60,153 bases of DNA from Microcoleus sp. Aus8_D1. Lineage in GTDB: Bacteria > Cyanobacteriota > Cyanobacteriia > Cyanobacteriales > Microcoleaceae. The notes beneath the pieces are model-generated. The model did not search any database. It saw only the letters and a program-made list of their open reading frames with translations, and was not told the origin of the DNA. A program made the translations under genes and the position numbers. Positions within the stretch are counted from its first letter, which is position 1; each line of letters opens with the position of its first letter. This document shows, one piece after another, positions 43,786 to 54,486 of this stretch. The stretch covers positions 92,186 through 152,338 of the forward strand of contig NZ_JAUBUO010000016.1 of the NCBI RefSeq assembly GCF_036702645.1, written 5' to 3'.

Positions 43786-46700
43786 ATGTCAGATCCGATT
43801 ACCTTGGGCTTGCTTTTCACAGTCGCTTGGCAAGGCATACTAGGAACTCAAGTTAATGATGCAGCAAAACATCTCTGTTTGACAGGCATTAAAAAGATAT
43901 CGCGAAACGGTAAAATTGTCAATCACGATTTAGAAAAAGCGCTGAAAACATCTTTCCTGAAAGCTCAGCAGCAAATCGCCTCAGAATGCAAGCAGGAAAT
44001 CGATCCGAAAAATAGCGCTAACCGAGAGAGTTTTAGCTATTCGCTGCAAGACAGGCGGCGCGATTTTGATTGGTTGAAACGAAAGCTCGAAAAGCTCAAA
44101 TTAGATTTAGAACAGGTTAATAAAGAAACAGTCCCGTCTGGGATTCCGATTGAGGGTTTAGATGAGATAGAATTGCTGCTGACTGCCACAGATGAGTTAA
44201 AGCAGAATCGGGTAGCAGCAGTTGAGCAAAAATTGCTGGAAGTTGCCCTCGAAAATTGCGATGTCGCACATTACAAAACGAAGTTAGAGCAAGAGTTGTT
44301 TGCCTTGGTGGCTGCATACTTTGCTCAAGAAATCAAGGAAAATGAAAAGGTTTTTCAGATATTCACCGGGCAAACTTTGACGCGAATTGATACCACAACC
44401 CAAGAGATGTATGCTTGGCTTGAGGAGATTGTGCAAAAGAGCCGCATTGTTTACCAACCGATTGACTGGCGGGCTATTTGTCAGCAGATTTTAGACGAGA
44501 AAGAACAGCAGCGGCTCAGTAGCAATCAGCTAACTTTTGGCGATCGTCAAATTGATGATGTTTATGTGCCGCTGGGATTGGTTGAACGGCACAAAGTGAC
44601 TCAGCGCCGGGAGGATTTGGCGGCGGAGGAAGGTTCGGATTTGTACCGGGAAAAAGAAGTAACTCAAACCTTTGAAAATAAGGAGTTTCTGGAGCAAGTT
44701 TTGCGGGGAGGAAGTAGCCCGAAGAGCAATGGGAAGCGGTTAGCAATTATTGGGGAACCGGGGGCGGGGAAAACTACGCTGTTGCGGCAGATTGCTAATT
44801 GGGTGGCGGAGGAAATTTCCGAGGCGATTGTTATTTGGGTTGCTTTGGCGGATTTGCAGGGGAAAGATTTAGAATCGTATTTATTTGATACTTGGTTGCT
44901 GGCGGCAATTAAGAGGGTTGGGAAAGCTGAGGCGACGGCGGATATTAAAGATGATTTTTTAGCACAGTTTAATGCTGAGCGGGTTTGGTTGGTGTTGGAT
45001 GGCGCGGATGAGATGGCTGCGGGTGATGGGAATCCTTTGGCGGAAATTCAGCGACAAGTTAGAACGGGCGGCTGTGTTCAAAGGGCGCGGATTGTGCTAA
45101 GTTGTCGGCAGAATGTTTGGGATGCGATCGGCTCTGCCTTGGATACTTTTGATACTTATCGTACTCTGGAGTTTTCCTATCCCGAACAGGTGGAAATGTT
45201 TATCGATAAGTGGTTTGGAACCCCCCCTAACCCCCCCTTGCTAAGGGGGGGGACAAGAGAAGAAGGGGATACTTTTGCTCGTGGTTTATCAACGCAGGCG
45301 ACAGGAGAAGGGAACACTCTTACTCCCCCCTTAGCAAGGGGGGCTGGGGGGGTTCTTCCTCCCTCCATCCCAACCCAAAATACAGAAGAAACTCTTACTC
45401 CCCCCTTAGCAAGGGGGGCTGGGGGGGTGCTTTCCCAACAGCTACGGGAAGCATTAGCAGCATCGGGGAAAGAGCGAATTCAAGACTTAGTAAAAAATCC
45501 GCTGAGATGTTCGCTGCTGTGCGGTACTTGGCAGTCGTTGGATGGGGATTTGCCGGATACTAAGGCTAAGCTTTATCGGCGGTTTGTGACTGCTTTGTAT
45601 CAGTGGAAGGAACCGCGCCTGAATTGGAGTCAGCAGCAGGATTTGAATGCGGCTTTGGGGAAATTGGCTCTGGCTGGGATGTTAAATGAAACGGATCGGT
45701 TTCAGTTACGAGAAAGTGTGGGATATCGGGTGATGGGTGCATCGCAGTTTGAGATAGCTTGCCGCTTGGGTTGGCTGAATTTGGTGGCGAGGGATGCGGA
45801 GACGGCGGAAGGGATTTATGCTTTTTATCATCCGACTTTTCAGGAATATTTTGCGGCGTTGGCGGCTGAGGATTGGCATTTTTTCTTGAATCATTTTCCT
45901 GGGAATCCGCAGCATCCTGATGCTCGATATCGGATTTTTGAGAAGCAGTGGAAGGAGGTTATTTTGCTGTGGTTGGGCCGTGAGGAGGTTGGGAAGGAGG
46001 AGAAGGAAGCGTTTATTAAGGCGTTGGTTGAGTTTGAGGATGGGTGTGGTAAATTTTATGGAGATCGGGCATATTTTCTCGCGGCTGCGGGGATTGCTGA
46101 GTTTAAGGATTGCAGTTTTGCTGATGAGATTGTGTCGCAGGTTATTAAGTGGGGGTTTGGTTATTTTGATGAGGAAAAGCAGGAGTGGCAAACATTTATC
46201 GCTCCACTGGCAGAGAGTTCATGGGATATACTGAAGGAGACGGATCGGAAAAGGGCGATCGTAGCTTTAGTTGAGTCAATCCGCAATTCAGGTAATGAAA
46301 AAACCCGGTGGATAGCGGCAAATATATTAGGGGAAATAAGCAAAGATAATCCAGTTGCGATCGAAGCTTTCGTCGAGTTAATCCGTAATTCTCAGGATGA
46401 AAATACCCGGAGGGAGGCGGCAGCTAGCTTAGGAACAATAGGCAAATCTAACCCTGTTGCGATCGAAGCTTTAGTCGAGTTAATCCGTAGTTCTCAGGAT
46501 GAAGATACTTGGAAGCAAGCGGCAAAAAGCTTAGGAGAAATAGGTGAAGATAACCCAGTTGCAATCTCCGGGTTAGTCAAGTTAATTCGCAATTCAGGCG
46601 AACAAAATACCCGGATGACAGCGGCAAATAGCTTAGGAAAAATTGACATAAATAACTTAGTTATACTTGTAAATTTTGATGAACTGAGTGCTACTTCTGA

Positions 46701-47607
46701 AGATGACAATACGATGATTAAATTGGCATATAGCTTGTCAAAATCAGTAACAAACAACTCTCTGATACTCGCAAATTTAGATAATTGCGACGAGCTTATT
46801 GGTACTTCTGAGGATGACAATACCTGGAGAAATGCCCTAAATATCTTAGGAAAAATCGAAAAAGATAACTCAGTTGCGCTCTCAGCTTTAGTCGAGTTAA
46901 TCGGTACTTTTCAGGATAAAAATACCCGGAGGAGAGCGACTGTAAGCCTAGGGCAAATATGCAAAAACAACCCGGATGCGATCGCCGCTTTAGTCGAGTT
47001 AATCAGCAATTCAGGTGATAGACATATCCGTAGTATAGCGGCAGATAGCTTAGGTGAAATCATGAAAGATAAACACTTCGCGATCGCAGTCTCTGGTTTG
47101 AAAGATTGCCTAACTTCCGAAATCTACAAAAACGACTTTACTCTTTATCACAAGTGCTGCCTCGTCATCTCTGACTGTGCCCAAAGCAAGACTTACCCAG
47201 AATTTTATCAAGCATGGCACACTCAACCCACCAATTCCCCAATACCGGACAACCACCCACAAAATCCAGATATCCCCACACTCCTAAAACAACTCAAACC
47301 CACAGATAAAACCTTCCCCGTACCCCTCAACATTCGCGCGTTAGAAGGCGAAACCGATATAAGCCCGATCGCCCAAGAACTCTGTACCCAACTATATCAA
47401 ACAATCTTCCCCGCAGATACAGACATCCCCGCCATCCGCAACGCCCCGGAATTCAAGCGATTAATCCCCCAACTCAAACACCGGCTGCAAAAACCGCACA
47501 TCGCCTTAATCTTGCACTCGTGCCCGTGCGAAAATGCGCTTTCGTCTTTCACCCGCAAACTCGCCGACTCTCACATGGGTATTCATATCGCCTGGATTAG
47601 CGATTAA
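43786..47607 (+). CDS. STAND NTPase: unknown N-terminal domain + NACHT + C-terminal HEAT (PBS-lyase-type) repeats
   Basis: Walker A GEPGAGKTTLLRQIANW and Walker B VWLVLDGADEM. At least 8 HEAT-like repeats (AIEALVELIRSSQDEDTWKQAAKSLGEIG...). Start at Met47 of the track ORF, after the CAGGAGAA RBS. Confidence 0.85.
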   Translation: MSDPITLGLLFTVAWQGILGTQVNDAAKHLCLTGIKKISRNGKIVNHDLEKALKTSFLKAQQQIASECKQEIDPKNSANRESFSYSLQDRRRDFDWLKRKLEKLKLDLEQVNKETVPSGIPIEGLDEIELLLTATDELKQNRVAAVEQKLLEVALENCDVAHYKTKLEQELFALVAAYFAQEIKENEKVFQIFTGQTLTRIDTTTQEMYAWLEEIVQKSRIVYQPIDWRAICQQILDEKEQQRLSSNQLTFGDRQIDDVYVPLGLVERHKVTQRREDLAAEEGSDLYREKEVTQTFENKEFLEQVLRGGSSPKSNGKRLAIIGEPGAGKTTLLRQIANWVAEEISEAIVIWVALADLQGKDLESYLFDTWLLAAIKRVGKAEATADIKDDFLAQFNAERVWLVLDGADEMAAGDGNPLAEIQRQVRTGGCVQRARIVLSCRQNVWDAIGSALDTFDTYRTLEFSYPEQVEMFIDKWFGTPPNPPLLRGGTREEGDTFARGLSTQATGEGNTLTPPLARGAGGVLPPSIPTQNTEETLTPPLARGAGGVLSQQLREALAASGKERIQDLVKNPLRCSLLCGTWQSLDGDLPDTKAKLYRRFVTALYQWKEPRLNWSQQQDLNAALGKLALAGMLNETDRFQLRESVGYRVMGASQFEIACRLGWLNLVARDAETAEGIYAFYHPTFQEYFAALAAEDWHFFLNHFPGNPQHPDARYRIFEKQWKEVILLWLGREEVGKEEKEAFIKALVEFEDGCGKFYGDRAYFLAAAGIAEFKDCSFADEIVSQVIKWGFGYFDEEKQEWQTFIAPLAESSWDILKETDRKRAIVALVESIRNSGNEKTRWIAANILGEISKDNPVAIEAFVELIRNSQDENTRREAAASLGTIGKSNPVAIEALVELIRSSQDEDTWKQAAKSLGEIGEDNPVAISGLVKLIRNSGEQNTRMTAANSLGKIDINNLVILVNFDELSATSEDDNTMIKLAYSLSKSVTNNSLILANLDNCDELIGTSEDDNTWRNALNILGKIEKDNSVALSALVELIGTFQDKNTRRRATVSLGQICKNNPDAIAALVELISNSGDRHIRSIAADSLGEIMKDKHFAIAVSGLKDCLTSEIYKNDFTLYHKCCLVISDCAQSKTYPEFYQAWHTQPTNSPIPDNHPQNPDIPTLLKQLKPTDKTFPVPLNIRALEGETDISPIAQELCTQLYQTIFPADTDIPAIRNAPEFKRLIPQLKHRLQKPHIALILHSCPCENALSSFTRKLADSHMGIHIAWISD
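45232..45425. repeat. Three copies of a near-palindromic mini-element CCCCCCTT(A/G)GC(A/T)AAGGGGGG embedded in frame in the NACHT gene
   Basis: 45232-45252 in one orientation; 45315-45352 and 45388-45425 as a 38-bp direct repeat in the other. They encode PPLLRGG / PPLARGAGG. Confidence 0.75.
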
Positions 47608-47640
47608 GCAGGCGAAAACCATGTTATACTGATTTTATGG

Positions 47641-47666
47641 TTTAACCCCTTAAATAAGGGGTTAAA
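47641..47666. repeat. Island palindrome family, copy 1 (TTTAACCCCTTAAATAAGGGGTTAAA)
   Basis: Perfect 11-bp arms. Related copies at 49302, 51469, 51682, 54661 and 57558. Confidence 0.8.
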
Positions 47667-47750
47667 TACCAGGCACATTCTAGTCATTATCTAGAAAGTA
47701 TCTAGAAACCCAGAACCTTGACAAACCAATAGTCACAGAGAGAACCTACC

Positions 47751-49202
47751 ATGAAAGCTCAATCTCAAAAGGCACAGTCCGCTTGTGATGTATCTGTTTA
47801 CTCTGACAAAGGGTCACTCGCCTTGCGCTTCCCCAAGCGCCATAGCACCCTGTGGGAGCTACTAGACGGTAAATCACTCAAGGGTAAGCCTAAGTGCTTA
47901 GGAATAGGCAAATACGGCTACTCTGATACCCCAGAGGATTGGAAGCGGGCTAGCCAAATTGCTGCTGCGATGGAGGCTGATTTAGACCATCCAGAGTGGG
48001 AAAAGCTGTTTGACCCTACCCTTGCTAAATATGGCTTAGGAGGGGGCAAATATGCTAAGTTAGCTGATGTACTTCAATTGCCGGGTACGACTCAAACCGT
48101 ACCTGAGATAACCGTAGGTGCGATGTGGGAAGCATATCTATTGTGGAAAAAAACAACCATAGAAGAAACTACTTTTGACACAACGTACAAAAAATATGGC
48201 AACATAATTTACGGTAAAATTTTTCAAAACAAGGGTAGTCAGTTGACACTATCTGACAACCCGCTAGCTACCGTTCATTTAAATGACAAACAGGGTATTG
48301 AAACCGCGCTTGATTCAATAACATCCAAACTCAAAACTTTGAGTTTGAGAGCGTTAAATCAAGCCTTTGAGTATGCCCAATCAAAAGGATTAATCGTTAA
48401 TTCGGCTACTAACAATCCTTTTGCTACTAACAAATTTAGCGTACCTGTTGTCACAACACAGCAAAAGTATGCTGACAAAGTAGTTAATGGTGAGATTGTA
48501 GAATGGCATGAAGTAGAGGATGAGAAAGCTTTAGAGAATGATAAGCGTGCCTTTACTAAGGATGAACGTGATATCATCATCAAAGCGTTTTATGAGTCTG
48601 ATAGCAATAGAACTCGCAAAGGTTCTATCATGTTTGCACCGTTTATCGAATTTCTGTTTTTAACGGGTTGTCGCCCTAGCGAAGTTTATGCACTAACTTG
48701 GCGTGACGTTAATTTTGAACGTCATGTTATCAAAATTAGTAAGTCACTAGGTGCTTCTACTCGCAAGGTTAAAAACACTAAGACGGGCGAGAGCCGCTTG
48801 TTTTATTTTGAAGATTTTGAACGTTTAAAAGCTTTGTTGTTAGAAATTAAAGGCGACAAAACAGAGGGTTTAATTTTTTCAAATGCCAATGGGGGGTATA
48901 TAGATACTTCTTCCCTAGGGAGAGTTTGGCGTGATTATGTAAAAAAACAAACTCTCAAATCAGGGGAAGAAGTAACGTATTTCTATCCCGGTATAGTCTC
49001 ACAATTGGCTCGTGAAGGCAAAATTAGTGGTTATTTAGCGTCCTATCATTGCCGTCACACTTACATCACGCTAACCGCGCAAGCTAATAGCCACAATAAC
49101 AACGCTCTGTTACGCATAGCTAGCAGTTGTGGCAACAGTGTGGATGTGATTCTAAGACATTACTTAGGTATTAATGAGTCAACAGAGTTAGTAGTAGTCT
49201 AA
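47751..49202 (+). CDS. int: Tyrosine-type site-specific recombinase / integrase
   Basis: Catalytic box SYHCRHTYITL (HxxR) and VILRHYLG (Tyr); LTGCRPSEVYALTWRDV arm. First gene of the HIP1-free, AT-rich region. Confidence 0.85.
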   Translation: MKAQSQKAQSACDVSVYSDKGSLALRFPKRHSTLWELLDGKSLKGKPKCLGIGKYGYSDTPEDWKRASQIAAAMEADLDHPEWEKLFDPTLAKYGLGGGKYAKLADVLQLPGTTQTVPEITVGAMWEAYLLWKKTTIEETTFDTTYKKYGNIIYGKIFQNKGSQLTLSDNPLATVHLNDKQGIETALDSITSKLKTLSLRALNQAFEYAQSKGLIVNSATNNPFATNKFSVPVVTTQQKYADKVVNGEIVEWHEVEDEKALENDKRAFTKDERDIIIKAFYESDSNRTRKGSIMFAPFIEFLFLTGCRPSEVYALTWRDVNFERHVIKISKSLGASTRKVKNTKTGESRLFYFEDFERLKALLLEIKGDKTEGLIFSNANGGYIDTSSLGRVWRDYVKKQTLKSGEEVTYFYPGIVSQLAREGKISGYLASYHCRHTYITLTAQANSHNNNALLRIASSCGNSVDVILRHYLGINESTELVVV

Positions 49203-49221
49203 CCCTACCCAGTACATACCT

Positions 49222-49249
49222 ACCTACCCTAACCCGGTAGGTTTTTTTG
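49222..49249 (+). terminator. Intrinsic terminator after the integrase gene
   Basis: ACCTACC-ctaaccc-GGTAGGT followed by TTTTTT. Confidence 0.55.
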
Positions 49250-49738
49250 TGCCTACTTACTGAGTGAACCTGTAGGTCATATCATCAGTAAATATATAAC
49301 TTTATCCCCCCCAATATGGGGGGATAAATAATAAAAATATTACAGCTACTAATCAAAACTGAACCCCCCTATATTTAAATAGATAAGTTTTATTAATGAA
49401 GTGAGTCGCTATCCTTTCCCTTCATTTTTTGCAATTTATAATCACTCATGCTCTTAATCGCCACAGAAACAGCCATTTTTGCCTCCTTTAAGGCTTGAAA
49501 GGTACAAAACCCTGGGGGGGATTTATTTTTCTTTACTACCTCTTTCTACCCACTATTTTTGTATCTCTCTGTTCATGTTTTTTATCTAGTTAGTTAGTTC
49601 TAATGCAATATTTCCGTTACATTGATTTACAATTACTCTAATTTTAATATTAATAAAACTTATCTATTGTACTCCCCTATACTCGTAAATGTTTACAAAT
49701 CTTACATATGTACATCACTTAAATAACACTGTTTAATG

Positions 49739-49767
49739 TTGACAACGATGTTACCAACCTATAAAGT
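49739..49767 (+). promoter_or_regulatory. Near-consensus sigma70-type promoter TTGACA-N17-TAAAGT inside the gene-poor AT-rich stretch
   Basis: Seen directly. No plus-strand ORF for ~800 bp downstream, so it may drive an ncRNA, possibly antisense to minus ORF 49862..50101. Confidence 0.3.
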
Positions 49768-50556
49768 TCCGTAATCCTGTACTACTAAATCCGCTTTATT
49801 TACCCACAAAAAAGTAGACCAACTGAGATTGACCTACTTTGATTTACGGTTTAATAGTGCTTTAGCCGTTACAGTAAACAAAACGGATAATAGCACCTTG
49901 TGGTTTCAAATGTTGGTTGTGTTCGTCTAATTTAATTTTCCACCATCTCCGACGGCATCTATCAATTATGCTATCGCCATCCTTAAGCGCTTCTAGCTTA
50001 TAAGCAGGGACGTACCTATTCTTTGTCAGGTAATGAGATGTTACTATGTGTTCCCAATAATGGGGCATAGAGACGGGTGTATTCTCGTAATTCACAATCA
50101 TTCTGCCACTTCCTTGTTCAGAATACTTTGCGCTTAAATCGCTGGCTGTTTTCAGTATATGTCAAAATATTTCAAAACCATATAGGTTTACAAAATCAGT
50201 ATAGCGTTAAAATGGACTAAAACAGGGTGTAAATAGTAAATATAAAAATAGCCAATAAAAAACCCTCCTATTCAACTTTTTTGTACCTTTTAGTCTAATT
50301 AAGTAAGCTATAATAAATAAACCATATTAGCGACTTACGCTACAAACAAAGGTTATATAACGAACTTTTATTTTTTCTGTACCATTACCCGTAACAAAAC
50401 TTTACAGAACTTAACGGTTATACCGTTGACAAGCGGCTGCAAACCTGCAATCGTGAGTAACTAAGGAAGATTGATGCGCGGTAATGCGGTTTTGACGAAC
50501 CACACTAACCACGACTTCCCCAAACGTTTACAACCAACGATTGGAACAGAATAACT

Positions 50557-51162
50557 ATGACAGATTTACCGTTATCAAGTGATTTGCGATCGCAAATCGT
50601 AACGTCCGCGTTAGAAGAGCGAGAAGAATACTGTTCGGCACGTAAAAGCCTAGGTTTCAACTCAGGTTTTGTTTTTGGTAACTTGGGTGCTGGGAGTTTC
50701 GAGTTCTACAAACAGCTTGCTAAGAAACTAAATATAGATTCCTATGCAAAATGTTTCGGCAATGTAACCATGACTGAAACATGGAAACGTCTAGTGCATT
50801 ATGAGGGTGAGTTTCCTCCTCCTGAATCGATAGAGCGAACAGAGCGAAAAGCGAAGTTACCGAATGAGAGTCCACATATCGCTCTTAAAAAAGCGACTGT
50901 AATGGAGGAATACTTAGGGAATTCCGACAAAGCTCAAATAAACATGGTAACTGACATCACCCCACAAAGTATTTTACAGTTACCGATATTGCCTCTTTCT
51001 TCACTCCATTTTTTACCTCCTTCTCGTGGTTTGTTCTTTGTGATGGTAAGCAAAACAGAACCAAAAGTTATTTATGTAGGCAAATCTCAAAACTTAAAAG
51101 TTTCTTGGGAACCTGTTTATACCCGTAGCAGGTGTCCAATTGCAGGACACAGAAAGCGATAG
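50557..51162 (+). CDS. Hypothetical protein with a GIY-YIG-like C-terminal motif, followed in the same frame after one TAG by ORF 51172..51402
   Basis: LFFVMVSKTEPKVIYVGKSQNLKVSW resembles the GIY...YVG motif. 51172 is in frame with 50557, so this may be a disrupted gene. Confidence 0.35.
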   Translation: MTDLPLSSDLRSQIVTSALEEREEYCSARKSLGFNSGFVFGNLGAGSFEFYKQLAKKLNIDSYAKCFGNVTMTETWKRLVHYEGEFPPPESIERTERKAKLPNESPHIALKKATVMEEYLGNSDKAQINMVTDITPQSILQLPILPLSSLHFLPPSRGLFFVMVSKTEPKVIYVGKSQNLKVSWEPVYTRSRCPIAGHRKR

Positions 51163-51400
51163 GTAACTACCTTGACCAACTTAGGACTTGACTTGTATAT
51201 TAGGTGGATACTTTTACCCGGCGGTAACGAACCTTCTGTGTGGCAAGAAGACATTGACAGTAGCCAACTTTCTTTGTGGCAAGCTCACGCCAACAAAGTG
51301 CTTAGTCCCTTCTTTTTGGGTAGGGAAATAGGAGATGAAATTACTTTAGACTGGGATTTACCAATGCCTCGCCACTGGCAACAAATCTCTAGAAAAGAGT

Positions 51401-51884
51401 AAGTTTGTCAGGTTAGGTAAAGTTAATATGCTAATGAGTCCTTTGGGTAGGGGGACTCATTTTTATTGTTTATCCCCTTATTTAAGGGGTTAAAGTTAAA
51501 TAATAGATTATCAATTATCCTACATATTTTTACTCTCACCAAGTCGAAAATCACTACTCTAGAGTCTGCCAAGCATAGCGATATTTGTACTTTGTGTTAT
51601 GGCCTAAAATCAAAACCGGGTTTTTCACCCCAAAACGTCATTTTAATTTTTTATAAATGGGGGTTTTGGGAGTGTTTATGATTTATCCCCTTATTTAAGG
51701 GGTTAAAGTTAAAGTGCAAGATACTAAGCTAGATTTTAGAGGGTGTGGTGTCTAGATTATGCCTAGAAAGTGACAAGCCACAATTAAGCAATCTCAACAA
51801 CTAGGATAACGTAAATAGGTTAAATGACTAGAAAGTATCTAGAAATCAAGGATAGGATGGCTGAAAGCATTGGTAAATGGTAAC
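51401..51884. repeat. Left arm of the long inverted repeat flanking ppk; carries a 195-bp insertion (51496..51690) bounded by duplicated palindromes
   Basis: Reverse complement of 54487..54753 aligns at >95% identity apart from the insertion. Confidence 0.85.
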
Positions 51885-52051
51885 TAATCTGGATTAGCGC
51901 CACACCGCTGGAATTGCCGTTAACAGGTTTTGCGGTGGATGCAGAGGATTTGTTGGAGGCGGTGCAGGATTGGATTGCGGGGATTGGTGCGTGATATGAT
52001 GTTATGCCTTTGGGGCGGGCTAGAAGCCCACCCCACAAGAGTTTATACTCG

Positions 52052-52152
52052 TTACCAGGCTCTGCCTGGTAACGCAGATCCGGGAGGCTCTGCCTCCATT
52101 TTACCAGCCGAGGCAGAGCCTCTGAATATGGGTTCCAAGGCTCTGCCTTGGA
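52052..52152. promoter_or_regulatory. Cluster of four hairpins in the ppk leader with a conserved GGCTCTGCC core and covarying stems
   Basis: ttaccaggCTCTGcctggtaa (52052-52072), ggaggCTCTGcctcc (52083-52097), gaggCAGAGcctc (52110-52122, opposite polarity), ttccaaggCTCTGccttggaa (52132-52152). Confidence 0.4.
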
Positions 52153-52305
52153 ACCAGTTAAGTTTTAATTTCTTCAACCCCTCTGAGCTCGGGTTTTGTC
52201 TGTGTCGGCGCGATTTCAATCGCCCGCAACCGCCCCACTACCGCAATACTACTGCAATACTAATGGTAAAGATACAATCGAGCCTCCCCAAGACTCCCGC
52301 AAACC

Positions 52306-54486
52306 ATGTCCAAGCAAAAAAAGACCCCAGCCAAAACCTACACCGAAATCAACCTCAGCGACCCGCAATACTACTTCAACCGAGAACAAAGCTGGCTAGA
52401 ATTCAACAACCGCGTGCTCCACGAAGCCCTAGACCCCCGCACGCCCCTCCTAGAAAGACTCAAATTTCTCGCTATTTTTAGCTCAAACTTAGACGAATAC
52501 TTCATGGTGCGAGTAGCCGCACTCAAACAGCAAGTAGAAGCAAAAGTCAGTAAATTGACCTCCGACGGCCGCACGCCCCAAGAACAGCTAGATGCCATCA
52601 ACAAGCGGCTTTTGCCGATGGTTACTCAGCAACACTCGTATTTTGAGCAAACTCTGCGGCCCAAATTAGCAGCAAACGGCATCCACATTCTCGACTACAT
52701 TGACCTCAATCAAGAACAGCGAAATTACTTGCATCGCTACTTCAAAGAACAAGTATTTCCTGTGCTCACACCCCTAGCAGTTGACCCCAGTCATCCCTTC
52801 CCATTTCTATCCAATCTCAGTCTTAATTTAGCAGTAGTTGTCAGAGACCCCGACACCCGCGAAGAACTATTTGCGCGCGTCAAAGTACCGCAGGTTCTGC
52901 CCAGATTTTTGCCCTTACCGGAGGACTTGCAGTGGCAGCAGAGGGGCAAATCTCCTGTGTGGACGGGGGTACCTCTCGAACAGGTAATCGCCCACAATTT
53001 AGAGGCTTTGTTTCCGGGGATGGACATTCAGGAATATCACCCGTTTCGGATTACTCGCAATTCCGATTTGACTGTGGAGGAAGATGAGGCAGATGATTTG
53101 CTGCTGGCCATTGAACAGGAACTCCGCAAACGCCGATTTACAGGTTCTGCGGTGCGCCTGGAAATTCCAGCGATTATGCCGCCTGCACTGCGAGATATGT
53201 TGATGGACGAGTTGGATCTCGGCGAGCAGGATGTTTACGCCGTGGAGGGGCTGCTAGGCCTCAAGGATTTGATGTCTTTTGTCGGGTTGCCGGTACCGGA
53301 ACTCAAAGATCCGCCTTGGACTCCGGTGGTGCCGCCCCGCTTGCGGAACTCGGAACCGCCCAGGATGGTAGGTAAATCGATGTTGGATGTTGAGGAGGGT
53401 GAGGATATTTTCACGGCCATCCGCCAGGGCGATTTGATGCTGCACCATCCCTATCACTCGTTTGCAGCCACTGTCCAGCGGTTTATTACTGAGGCGGCGA
53501 ACGATCGCTCGGTGTTAGCGATTAAGATGACTTTATACCGCACTTCTGGTGATTCGCCGATCGTCAGTTCTTTAATTCAAGCTGCGGAAAACGGCAAGCA
53601 AGTAGCCGTTTTAGTCGAGCTCAAAGCCCGGTTTGACGAAGAAAATAACATTAATTGGGCGCGCAAGTTAGAACAAGCGGGCGTGCACGTTGTCTACGGT
53701 TTGGTGGGACTCAAAACCCACACCAAGGTGGTGATGGTAGTCCGGCGCGAGGACAGTTGCATTCGCCGCTACGTCCACATCGGCACGGGAAATTACAACC
53801 CGAAAACTGCTGGACTGTATACGGATGTGGGTTTGTTGAGTTGTCGCGAAGATTTGGGTGCGGATTTGACGGACTTGTTTAATTATTTAACCGGTTATTC
53901 CCGACAGCTATCTTATCGTAAATTGTTGGTGGCGCCTGTCAATATGCGCGAGCGTTTTTTAGCATTAATCCGCCGCGAAGCCGACTTCTGCCGCTTACAG
54001 GCCGAAGGCGGCACCGGTAGCTGCGGCCGGATTGTCGCTAAAATGAATGCTTTAGTTGACCCTCAAATTATTGTTGCTTTGTACGAAGCTTCCCAAGCGG
54101 GTGTTAAAATTGATTTGATTATCCGGGGGATTTGTTGTTTGCGTCCGGGCGTTGAGGGTGTTAGCGAAAATATCAAAGTTATCAGTATTATCGGCCGCTT
54201 TTTAGAGCATTCTCGGATGTTTTATTTTTTCAACGGCGGCAACGAAGAGGTGTATATTGGTTCTGCTGACTGGATGCAGCGCAATCTCACAAGGCGGGTT
54301 GAGGCGATCGTGCAAGTGGAAGATCCGACTATAGTGATGGAGTTGCAAGAAATTTTGGGTGTGATGTTGGCGGACAACCGCCAAGCTTGGGATTTGCAGT
54401 CTGGGGGACACTACTCTCAGCGACGCCCGCCTGCTAATAACCCGGAGGTGAGCTCTCAGCAAATTTTGATGGATATGGTAAATTAA
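52306..54486 (+). CDS. ppk: Polyphosphate kinase 1
   Basis: DPQYYFNREQSWLEFNNRVL N-terminus and conserved PPK1 histidine regions. GC-rich, unlike the flanking DNA. The stop codon sits at the inner edge of the right inverted repeat. Confidence 0.92.
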   Translation: MSKQKKTPAKTYTEINLSDPQYYFNREQSWLEFNNRVLHEALDPRTPLLERLKFLAIFSSNLDEYFMVRVAALKQQVEAKVSKLTSDGRTPQEQLDAINKRLLPMVTQQHSYFEQTLRPKLAANGIHILDYIDLNQEQRNYLHRYFKEQVFPVLTPLAVDPSHPFPFLSNLSLNLAVVVRDPDTREELFARVKVPQVLPRFLPLPEDLQWQQRGKSPVWTGVPLEQVIAHNLEALFPGMDIQEYHPFRITRNSDLTVEEDEADDLLLAIEQELRKRRFTGSAVRLEIPAIMPPALRDMLMDELDLGEQDVYAVEGLLGLKDLMSFVGLPVPELKDPPWTPVVPPRLRNSEPPRMVGKSMLDVEEGEDIFTAIRQGDLMLHHPYHSFAATVQRFITEAANDRSVLAIKMTLYRTSGDSPIVSSLIQAAENGKQVAVLVELKARFDEENNINWARKLEQAGVHVVYGLVGLKTHTKVVMVVRREDSCIRRYVHIGTGNYNPKTAGLYTDVGLLSCREDLGADLTDLFNYLTGYSRQLSYRKLLVAPVNMRERFLALIRREADFCRLQAEGGTGSCGRIVAKMNALVDPQIIVALYEASQAGVKIDLIIRGICCLRPGVEGVSENIKVISIIGRFLEHSRMFYFFNGGNEEVYIGSADWMQRNLTRRVEAIVQVEDPTIVMELQEILGVMLADNRQAWDLQSGGHYSQRRPPANNPEVSSQQILMDMVN

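Follow-up and report, generated by a model that had tools for sequence, protein, structure and literature searches.

REPs, REPINs and the RAYT proteins that accompany them are well described (PMC3116915, PMC5581495). The Y1 enzymes TnpA_REP and IS200/IS605 TnpA read a single-stranded DNA hairpin together with a short 5′ tag, and then cleave and rejoin the strand (PMC6006769). Among the TnpA_REP subclasses, 2.4 is recognized by the signature NH[IFV]H, WQ and YIxNNP, and 2.6 by NH[LIV]H, WQ and YIH[QN]NP, with a mean length of 179 (Quentin et al. 2018, PMC6006769). They correspond to the Bertels RAYT groups 4 and 5, respectively, and group 4 (subclass 2.4) is reported to be common in Cyanobacteria (PMC6006769, PMC5581495). 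Subclass 2.6 is reported from Bacteroidetes and is described with "atypical secondary structures" (PMC6006769). As for the repeats themselves, the REP families GTAG-12, GTAG-15 and GTAG-16 have been reported in Cyanobacteria and others in Planctomycetes, often as dimers (Di Nocera et al. 2013, PMC3733652).

Here we analyze four hairpins located upstream of ppk in a 60,153-nt stretch of DNA from Microcoleus sp. Aus8_D1 (the whole stretch is referred to as the window). They very probably constitute a single REPIN, i.e., two REP modules placed tail-to-tail that form a non-autonomous palindromic DNA element of a RAYT-associated family. As in the REP-BIME/TnpA_REP system of E. coli (PDB 4ER8) and in the REPINs of Pseudomonas fluorescens (PMC3116915, PMC5581495, PMC6006769), the repeats are short extragenic palindromes that occur predominantly as inverted doublets. 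As in E. coli BIMEs, which combine Y and Z REPs, two module subtypes are paired, here with CTC...G and CTG...C feet. As in REP-RAYT systems, inverted copies flank a gene for a HUH/Y1 transposase (a REPtron), and stem pairing is kept by compensatory change. Unlike the E. coli and P. fluorescens REPs, the modules carry an invariant CT 5′ of the first hairpin in place of the GT[AG]G guide, and their unit is made of two hairpins sharing one GGC-TCT-GCC apex instead of one hairpin; the host, a filamentous cyanobacterium, differs as well.

Structure of the element upstream of ppk

A preliminary description of the window had reported four consecutive hairpins between positions 52052 and 52152, the third of them inverted, and both the sequence and its inverted repeats bear this out (Table 1). 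The four hairpins have in common an 11-nt core, AGGCTCTGCCT, which is inverted in the third one; the core had been given as GG-CTCTG-CC, and its conservation holds, but its length is 11 and not 9 nt. The motif GGCTCTGCC is present in five copies in the 60-kb window versus 0.32 expected, and none of 100 shuffled sequences reached five. When the window was scanned with R1, a covariance model of the module, exactly the two modules listed in Table 1 were found and nothing else. The fifth copy of GGCTCTGCC, at position 45130, was discarded as a member of the family: it lacks a stem, is internal to an ORF with a NACHT domain and scores 7.6 bits on R1.

Table 1. Features of the REPIN and of the neighboring ppk gene (positions refer to the window).
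Feature	Position	Strand	Basis and remarks
Complete element (two modules)	52046-52159		Placed by covariance model; ~114 nt, inverted-repeat symmetry
REP module 1: 5′ CT tag, hairpin A, spacer GCAGATCCG, hairpin B	52046..52100	+	Covariance model R1, 75.2 bits, E 3.6e-17, full length
Hairpin A1: 11-bp stem CGTTACCAGGC/GCCTGGTAACG, loop TCT	52050..52074 (arms 52050-52060 / 52064-52074)	+	Inverted repeat, 100% complementary; seen in DNA and RNA folds
Hairpin B1: GGAGGC-TCT-GCCTCC	52083..52097	+	Sequence; helix 2 of the family structure
5-nt spacer separating the convergent modules	52101..52105	.	R1 module boundaries; gaps in the family mostly 3-15 nt
REP module 2, inverted, CTG...C foot type, hairpin A loop flipped (AGA on module strand)	52106..52159	-	R1, 54.8 bits, E 4.3e-12, full length
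Hairpin B2: GAGGC-AGA-GCCTC on + strand	52110..52122	-	Minus-strand core match; 13/13 complementary to B1
Hairpin A2: 11-bp stem GGTTCCAAGGC/GCCTTGGAACC, loop TCT on + strand	52131..52155 (arms 52131-52141 / 52145-52155)	-	Inverted repeat, 100% complementary
ppk (polyphosphate kinase 1), neighbor, outside the element	52306..54486	+	All four PPK domains in Pfam

The stems had been listed as differing from one hairpin to the next. They do differ, but they are longer than stated and enclose loops of 3 nt, and the inner hairpins do not stand alone at minimum energy: in the minimum-energy folds, both as DNA and as RNA, B1 pairs with B2, so that three hairpins result and not four. The 126-nt region folds with -40.4 kcal/mol as DNA (z = -10.3 versus shuffles) and with -67.3 kcal/mol as RNA (z = -8.1 versus shuffles). 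Upon comparing the stems of A1 and A2, two compensated double changes are apparent.

Module 2 has the lower R1 score of the two modules and a flipped hairpin A loop, and the window copy may be decaying. Such flips were seen in about ten modules, in which the 3-nt loop of hairpin A is inverted when compared with that of its companion hairpin B (TCT versus AGA), the palindromic stem being unaltered. This flip/flop-like inversion is present in the window at 52131-52155 and at loci L018, L046, L050, L053, L068, L069, L083, L090 and L120. A further hairpin, GC-rich and imperfect (GGGCGGGC-TAGAA-GCCCACCC), is found a short way before the REPIN, at 52013-52033, and occurs a single time in the window.

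Anatomy of the module and covariation of its stems

The repeat unit of the family is a 55-nt module consisting of an unpaired CT, hairpin A (stem of 11 bp), ~10-13 nt of spacer and hairpin B (stem of 5-6 bp); the apex GGC-TCT-GCC is the same in both hairpins. A second hairpin with the core GGCTCYGCC follows hairpin A at a fixed distance of 10-14 nt in 117 of 163 matches. The window element shows the short (about 20-65 nt) hairpin-forming palindromic repeats by which REPs are recognized.

For the analysis of covariation, 113 distinct modules were aligned and the six stem pairs free of any constraint from the search patterns were considered. The imposed structure is paired in 97.6% of the cells, and two-sided compensatory changes are found at all six unconstrained pairs (columns 5-29, 9-25, 11-23, 40-54, 41-53 and 42-52). 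Columns 5-29, 9-25 and 11-23 contain all four Watson-Crick pair types; pair 5-29, for instance, is CG in 78 modules, GC in 21, UA in 4 and AU in 2. The covariation score is 0.200, versus 0.046 ± 0.005 in shuffled alignments (0 of 500 reach 0.200) and 0.017-0.047 when the partners are slid. The covarying stems of the preliminary description are confirmed both by the compensated changes between A1 and A2 and by the covariation of six out of six pairs across the family. That description was right in kind to see the hairpins as a site recognized by its structure and not as an operator in double-stranded DNA.

Every hairpin is a near-perfect palindrome, which would suit double-stranded DNA operators bound by a dimeric transcription factor. 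The outer half-site positions, however, vary freely as long as they stay complementary, a behavior unexpected for base-specific contacts in a duplex, and the elements have no association to particular genes; we give the operator explanation practically no credence. By analogy with the known Y1 enzymes, the covarying stems would fit recognition of hairpin shape on single-stranded DNA, and a Y1 transposase working on DNA in this form, instead of an RNA-binding regulator, would be the most likely structure-specific reader.

The unpaired tag placed directly 5′ of hairpin A is nearly invariant, with C3 in 113 of 113 modules and T4 in 112 of 113, and in most modules CA directly follows hairpin A. 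The canonical 5′ GT[AG]G tetranucleotide was searched for in the same 113 modules and is present in six only, which is about the level expected by chance. As this tag is missing, the family is a non-canonical REP family. A search of Rfam gave no match at gathering thresholds, and in E-value mode it returned only sub-threshold miRNA look-alikes.

Distribution and arrangement of the modules

A genome-wide search for the motif, suggested in the preliminary description together with the building of a covariance model, does find it elsewhere. A single pattern scan with GTTNCNAGGCTCTGCCTNGNAAC was performed over ~186,000 species genomes, and the figures derived from it are lower bounds. Matches were obtained in at least 120 stretches at unrelated loci, in both orientations and in several phyla. 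Among the matches listed, the cyanobacterial ones include many from Microcoleus and Tychonema, as well as from Hormoscilla, Calothrix, Nostocaceae, Heteroscytonema, Oscillatoria princeps and Microcystis. Planctomycetota are also represented by many of the matches listed (Pirellulaceae, Gemmataceae, Thermoguttaceae and Rhodopirellula). The few others listed come from Alcaligenaceae MAGs, one Desulfatirhabdium MAG and one Enterobacteriaceae MAG, assignments for which the binning of the MAGs is possibly faulty. Up to seven separate contigs of a single MAG bear the element among the matches listed.

The convergent (tail-to-tail) pair, the arrangement found in the window, is the commonest one among the cyanobacterial modules: 82 of 148 modules from 66 loci form 41 such pairs. 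Convergent pairs are present in non-cyanobacterial loci too, and single and tandem modules occur besides the doublets. In many doublets, that of the window included, one module is of the CTC...G type and the other of the CTG...C type. At the cyanobacterial loci, 15% of the hairpins lie within open frames of at least 150 aa, versus 75% of the bases.

When compared with copies at unrelated loci, the window doublet is 84.6% identical over 123 nt to the one at L066 and 88.7% identical over 106 nt to the one at L021; the flanks of the window copy, compared with the loci of the other copies, gave no match. Extrapolation from the extra sites found in the flanks of the ascertained loci suggests a density of roughly one site per 50 kb, which agrees with the one site in the 60-kb window.

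A RAYT gene flanked by inverted modules

In the Microcoleus locus L003/L004, at a distance of ~8 kb from ppk, three modules on the + strand and three on the - strand flank a gene of 179 aa, located at 1860-2396 in L003. One of the units flanking this gene in L003, CTCGTTCCCAGGCTCTGCCTGGTAACGCAGATCCAGAGGCTCCGCCTCG, is practically identical to module 1 of the window. In M. vaginatus DQ-U2 (L061), the layout of the modules around the gene is the same and the encoded protein is 90% identical to that of L003 (tblastn). In a Gemmatales MAG (L097), one module on each side converges on the gene, and the protein is 54% identical to that of L003 (tblastn). An Alcaligenaceae MAG (L037) has copies on both sides of a gene whose product is 53% identical (tblastn); the left copy is devoid of hairpin B and its orientation is ambiguous. 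The length of the module-flanked gene ranges from 173 to 179 aa in the related Microcoleus genomes and the Gemmatales MAG.

The product of the L003 gene scores 111 bits on the NCBIfam model NF047646 (REP_Tyr_transpos; cutoff 80), passes the Pfam model Y1_Tnp and aligns to E. coli TnpA_REP (PDB 4ER8) over the HUH and YxxxNP motifs. The HUH motif (H62-L-H64), WQEG and the catalytic Y140 are invariant in 10 out of 10 diverse homologs. The protein family comprises 2825 homologs at E < 1e-10; most of them come from cyanobacteria and measure ~177 aa, and many already bear the name REP-associated tyrosine transposase or RayT. With NHLH, WQ and YIHNNP motifs and 177-179 aa, the RAYT fits the published signatures of TnpA_REP subclasses 2.4 and 2.6 (PMC6006769), as judged by motif and length alone. 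GT[AG]G feet are part of the description of subclass 2.4 REPs and are missing from the modules analyzed here.

The way in which a Y1 HUH enzyme reads single-stranded hairpins and a short 5′ guide at the ends of IS200/IS605 elements is the mechanistic model used in this work. The element could in principle be a MITE moved by a DDE transposase, or a relic of IS200/IS605 ends, instead of a REPIN; its length of ~114 nt and its inverted-repeat symmetry agree with this, and IS605 OrfB/TnpB genes are found near ppk in relatives. The associated protein, however, fails the IS200 model NF033573 (17 bits, below the cutoff of 55), in contrast to its 111 bits as a RAYT. Several modules are present on each side of the RAYT gene, which is the layout of a REPtron and not that of single left and right insertion-sequence ends. 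Single and tandem modules also exist, and tnpB was searched for next to the module-flanked gene in L003 and none is adjacent. Taking this into account, the elements are not insertion-sequence ends in our reading, and a MITE or IS origin is very unlikely.

Turning back to the REPIN, a tblastn search of the 60-kb window with the L003 protein found no RAYT homolog. The REPtron layout, with inverted copies around the RAYT gene, was met in relatives only (L003/L004, L061 and L097), and the source genome presumably contains a RAYT, as they do.

In L003 (1730-1785) and also in L004, five copies of a tandem 10-nt repeat, TTTTACCTAG, and repeated pieces of TTACCTCG are interspersed among the modules that precede the RAYT gene. 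The REP modules may be embedded in short tandem repeats there, or may be their source.

Relationship of the element to ppk

The Ppk proteins closest to that encoded in the window are 92-95% identical and belong to Microcoleus, Tychonema and other Oscillatoriales. The element is located 147-260 nt before the ppk ATG (-260 to -147). We compared the ppk loci L001/L002, L003/L004/L005, L006, L127, L128/L129, L130 and L131/L132. The module was searched for in the seven other Microcoleus and Tychonema ppk leaders (L001, L003, L006, L127, L128, L130 and L131) with the covariance model and with filters off, and none contains it. The sole block conserved among the ppk leaders extends from roughly -100 to the ATG; it holds CTACAATACTAAT and GAGCCTCCCCAAGACTCCC..AAACCATG, and the element lies upstream of it. 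TACAAT/TACTAAT-like -10 candidates are found in this block, downstream of the element, at about 52250-52270; a sigma-70 promoter scan of 51600-52400 gave no site on the + strand. For the nearest leader, that of L128, homology to the window ends at ~52160, which corresponds to the edge of the element.

The preliminary description had interpreted the hairpins as a repeated cis-regulatory RNA in the 5′ leader of ppk that an RNA-binding regulator would bind or that would act as an array of attenuators, and had itself made this depend on conservation in related ppk leaders. The hairpins are indeed strong, their stems covary, and within the intergenic region they are placed toward ppk, with 147 nt between them and its ATG. 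Nevertheless, as the related leaders are devoid of the element, a regulator specific for ppk is not supported by these comparisons. Conservation among the leaders is confined to the block downstream of the element, and the element, which also surrounds transposase genes, is found in either orientation at 120 or more unrelated loci. An inverted doublet has no single polarity, and Rfam gave no match. We consider a regulatory RNA array controlling ppk highly improbable.

The gene neighborhood upstream of ppk varies among relatives. A clean empty orthologous site was searched for in their ppk leaders and none was found; as the upstream sequence is different in every relative, neither a clean empty site nor a target duplication can be called. 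The intergenic region in which the window copy came to lie is variable and precedes the conserved ppk-proximal block, and any effect of the REPIN on ppk would, from the comparison of the leaders, be incidental.

An effect of the REPIN on its host at this site, secondary to its identity as a REPIN and compatible with it, is unlikely, although less so than the alternatives considered above. It would consist of a bidirectional terminator or insulator between ppk and the integrase island or gene remnant located upstream (see below), or of a stem-loop stabilizing the RNA if the element is transcribed. REPs are able to terminate transcription and to stabilize mRNA (PMC6006769), the RNA fold is very stable (-67 kcal/mol), and hairpin A2 with the AGTTAAGTTT after it was picked out by a simple scan as resembling a + strand terminator. 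The T-tract is poor, however, and the position of the element is kept in no relative, which gives no sign of selection acting on a local function.

Within the ppk-proximal block shared with L128, a direct repeat occurs three times with a phasing of 11 bp (CCGCCCCACTA / CCGCAATACTA / CTGCAATACTA) at 52230-52268, 40-75 nt upstream of the ppk ATG. As a candidate for a genuine ppk operator (e.g., of the response-regulator type) or a promoter element, these repeats are preferable to the hairpins.

Other mobile and repeated DNA around ppk

Between the NACHT gene, which ends at 47607, and ppk there is an island of ~4 kb (47634-51713) that starts with a tyrosine integrase gene (47751-49202; Pfam PF00589, PHROG 1). 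The island is bounded by imperfect direct repeats with the palindromic core TTTATGGTTTAACCCCTTAAATAAGGGGTTAAA, located at 47634, 51462 and 51675. In the relatives L001 and L131, the NACHT gene is directly upstream of ppk. The island is probably an integrated element.

The sequence 51890-51995 is a remnant of the 3′ end of a gene (...AVDAEDLLEAVQDWIAGIGA*). It shows 86-88% identity to the 3′ ends of the DUF6930/DUF7309 gene located upstream of ppk in L003 and L130, and of the NACHT gene in L131, which suggests that it arose by rearrangement or by an att-type duplication.

Inside the NACHT/HEAT ORF of 1319 aa, three CCCCCTTnnnnAAGGGGG palindromes are found at 45233-45417, with the frame intact and 0 expected by chance; a similar palindrome-rich stretch is present upstream of ppk in L131. 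The CCCCCTTnnnnAAGGGGG palindromes are a second, distinct family of small repeats, placed in frame within coding sequence. In other Microcoleus genomes, a gene for IS605 OrfB/TnpB (Cas12f-like) is located ~1.4 kb downstream of ppk (L131/L132, 5078-5181). As IS605 OrfB/TnpB genes are near ppk in relatives, the neighborhood of ppk is rich in mobile elements.

Proposed recognition of the modules and implications

By analogy with E. coli TnpA_REP and IS200/IS605 TnpA, we propose that the modules would fold into hairpins when the DNA becomes single-stranded, and that the cognate RAYT, a HUH/Y1 enzyme, would then read the hairpin by its shape, its conserved apex and the tag on its 5′ side. Upon cutting and rejoining of the strand by the RAYT, the elements would spread and persist in intergenic DNA. 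What the enzyme reads directly would be the fixed apex and the CT tag. If the RAYT reads shape, apex and tag in this way, the apex is expected to be fixed and the outer stem positions merely paired. Binding and cleavage of the modules by the RAYT, as well as their present-day mobility, are inferred from the same known enzymes.

The CT-tagged two-hairpin family is apparently undescribed. The cyanobacterial and planctomycete families of Di Nocera et al. (PMC3733652) are defined by a terminal GTAG tag, which is missing here, and the present family is set apart from them by that description and not by sequence comparison. A full-text string search of the literature for the motif returned only matches to eukaryotic primers or sequences and no microbial paper. 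Its three unusual traits are the absence of a GTAG tag, the unit of two hairpins and the presence of the same hairpin sequence across phyla.

For the annotation of this locus, the site should be labeled as a repeat element (REPIN), and following it up as a riboswitch or attenuator of ppk is not advisable; for the biology of ppk there is no new implication. With respect to mobile DNA, the family provides a clean cyanobacterial REPIN-RAYT pair in which natural covariation maps the positions that need only to pair and those that are read directly, and the covariance model can be used for a census in Microcoleus, Tychonema and planctomycete genomes. We tentatively suggest, as a possibility that we would not yet favor, that the CT-tagged two-hairpin module with the invariant GGC-TCT-GCC apex represents an undescribed REP/RAYT lineage, with a recognition sequence that has stayed practically unchanged in Cyanobacteria, Planctomycetota and some Proteobacteria even as the transposase diverged to ~53% identity. 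If true, a recognition sequence fixed across phyla would contradict the usual view of REPs as species-specific, and would imply either an unusually constrained code between protein and hairpin or repeated transfer between phyla.
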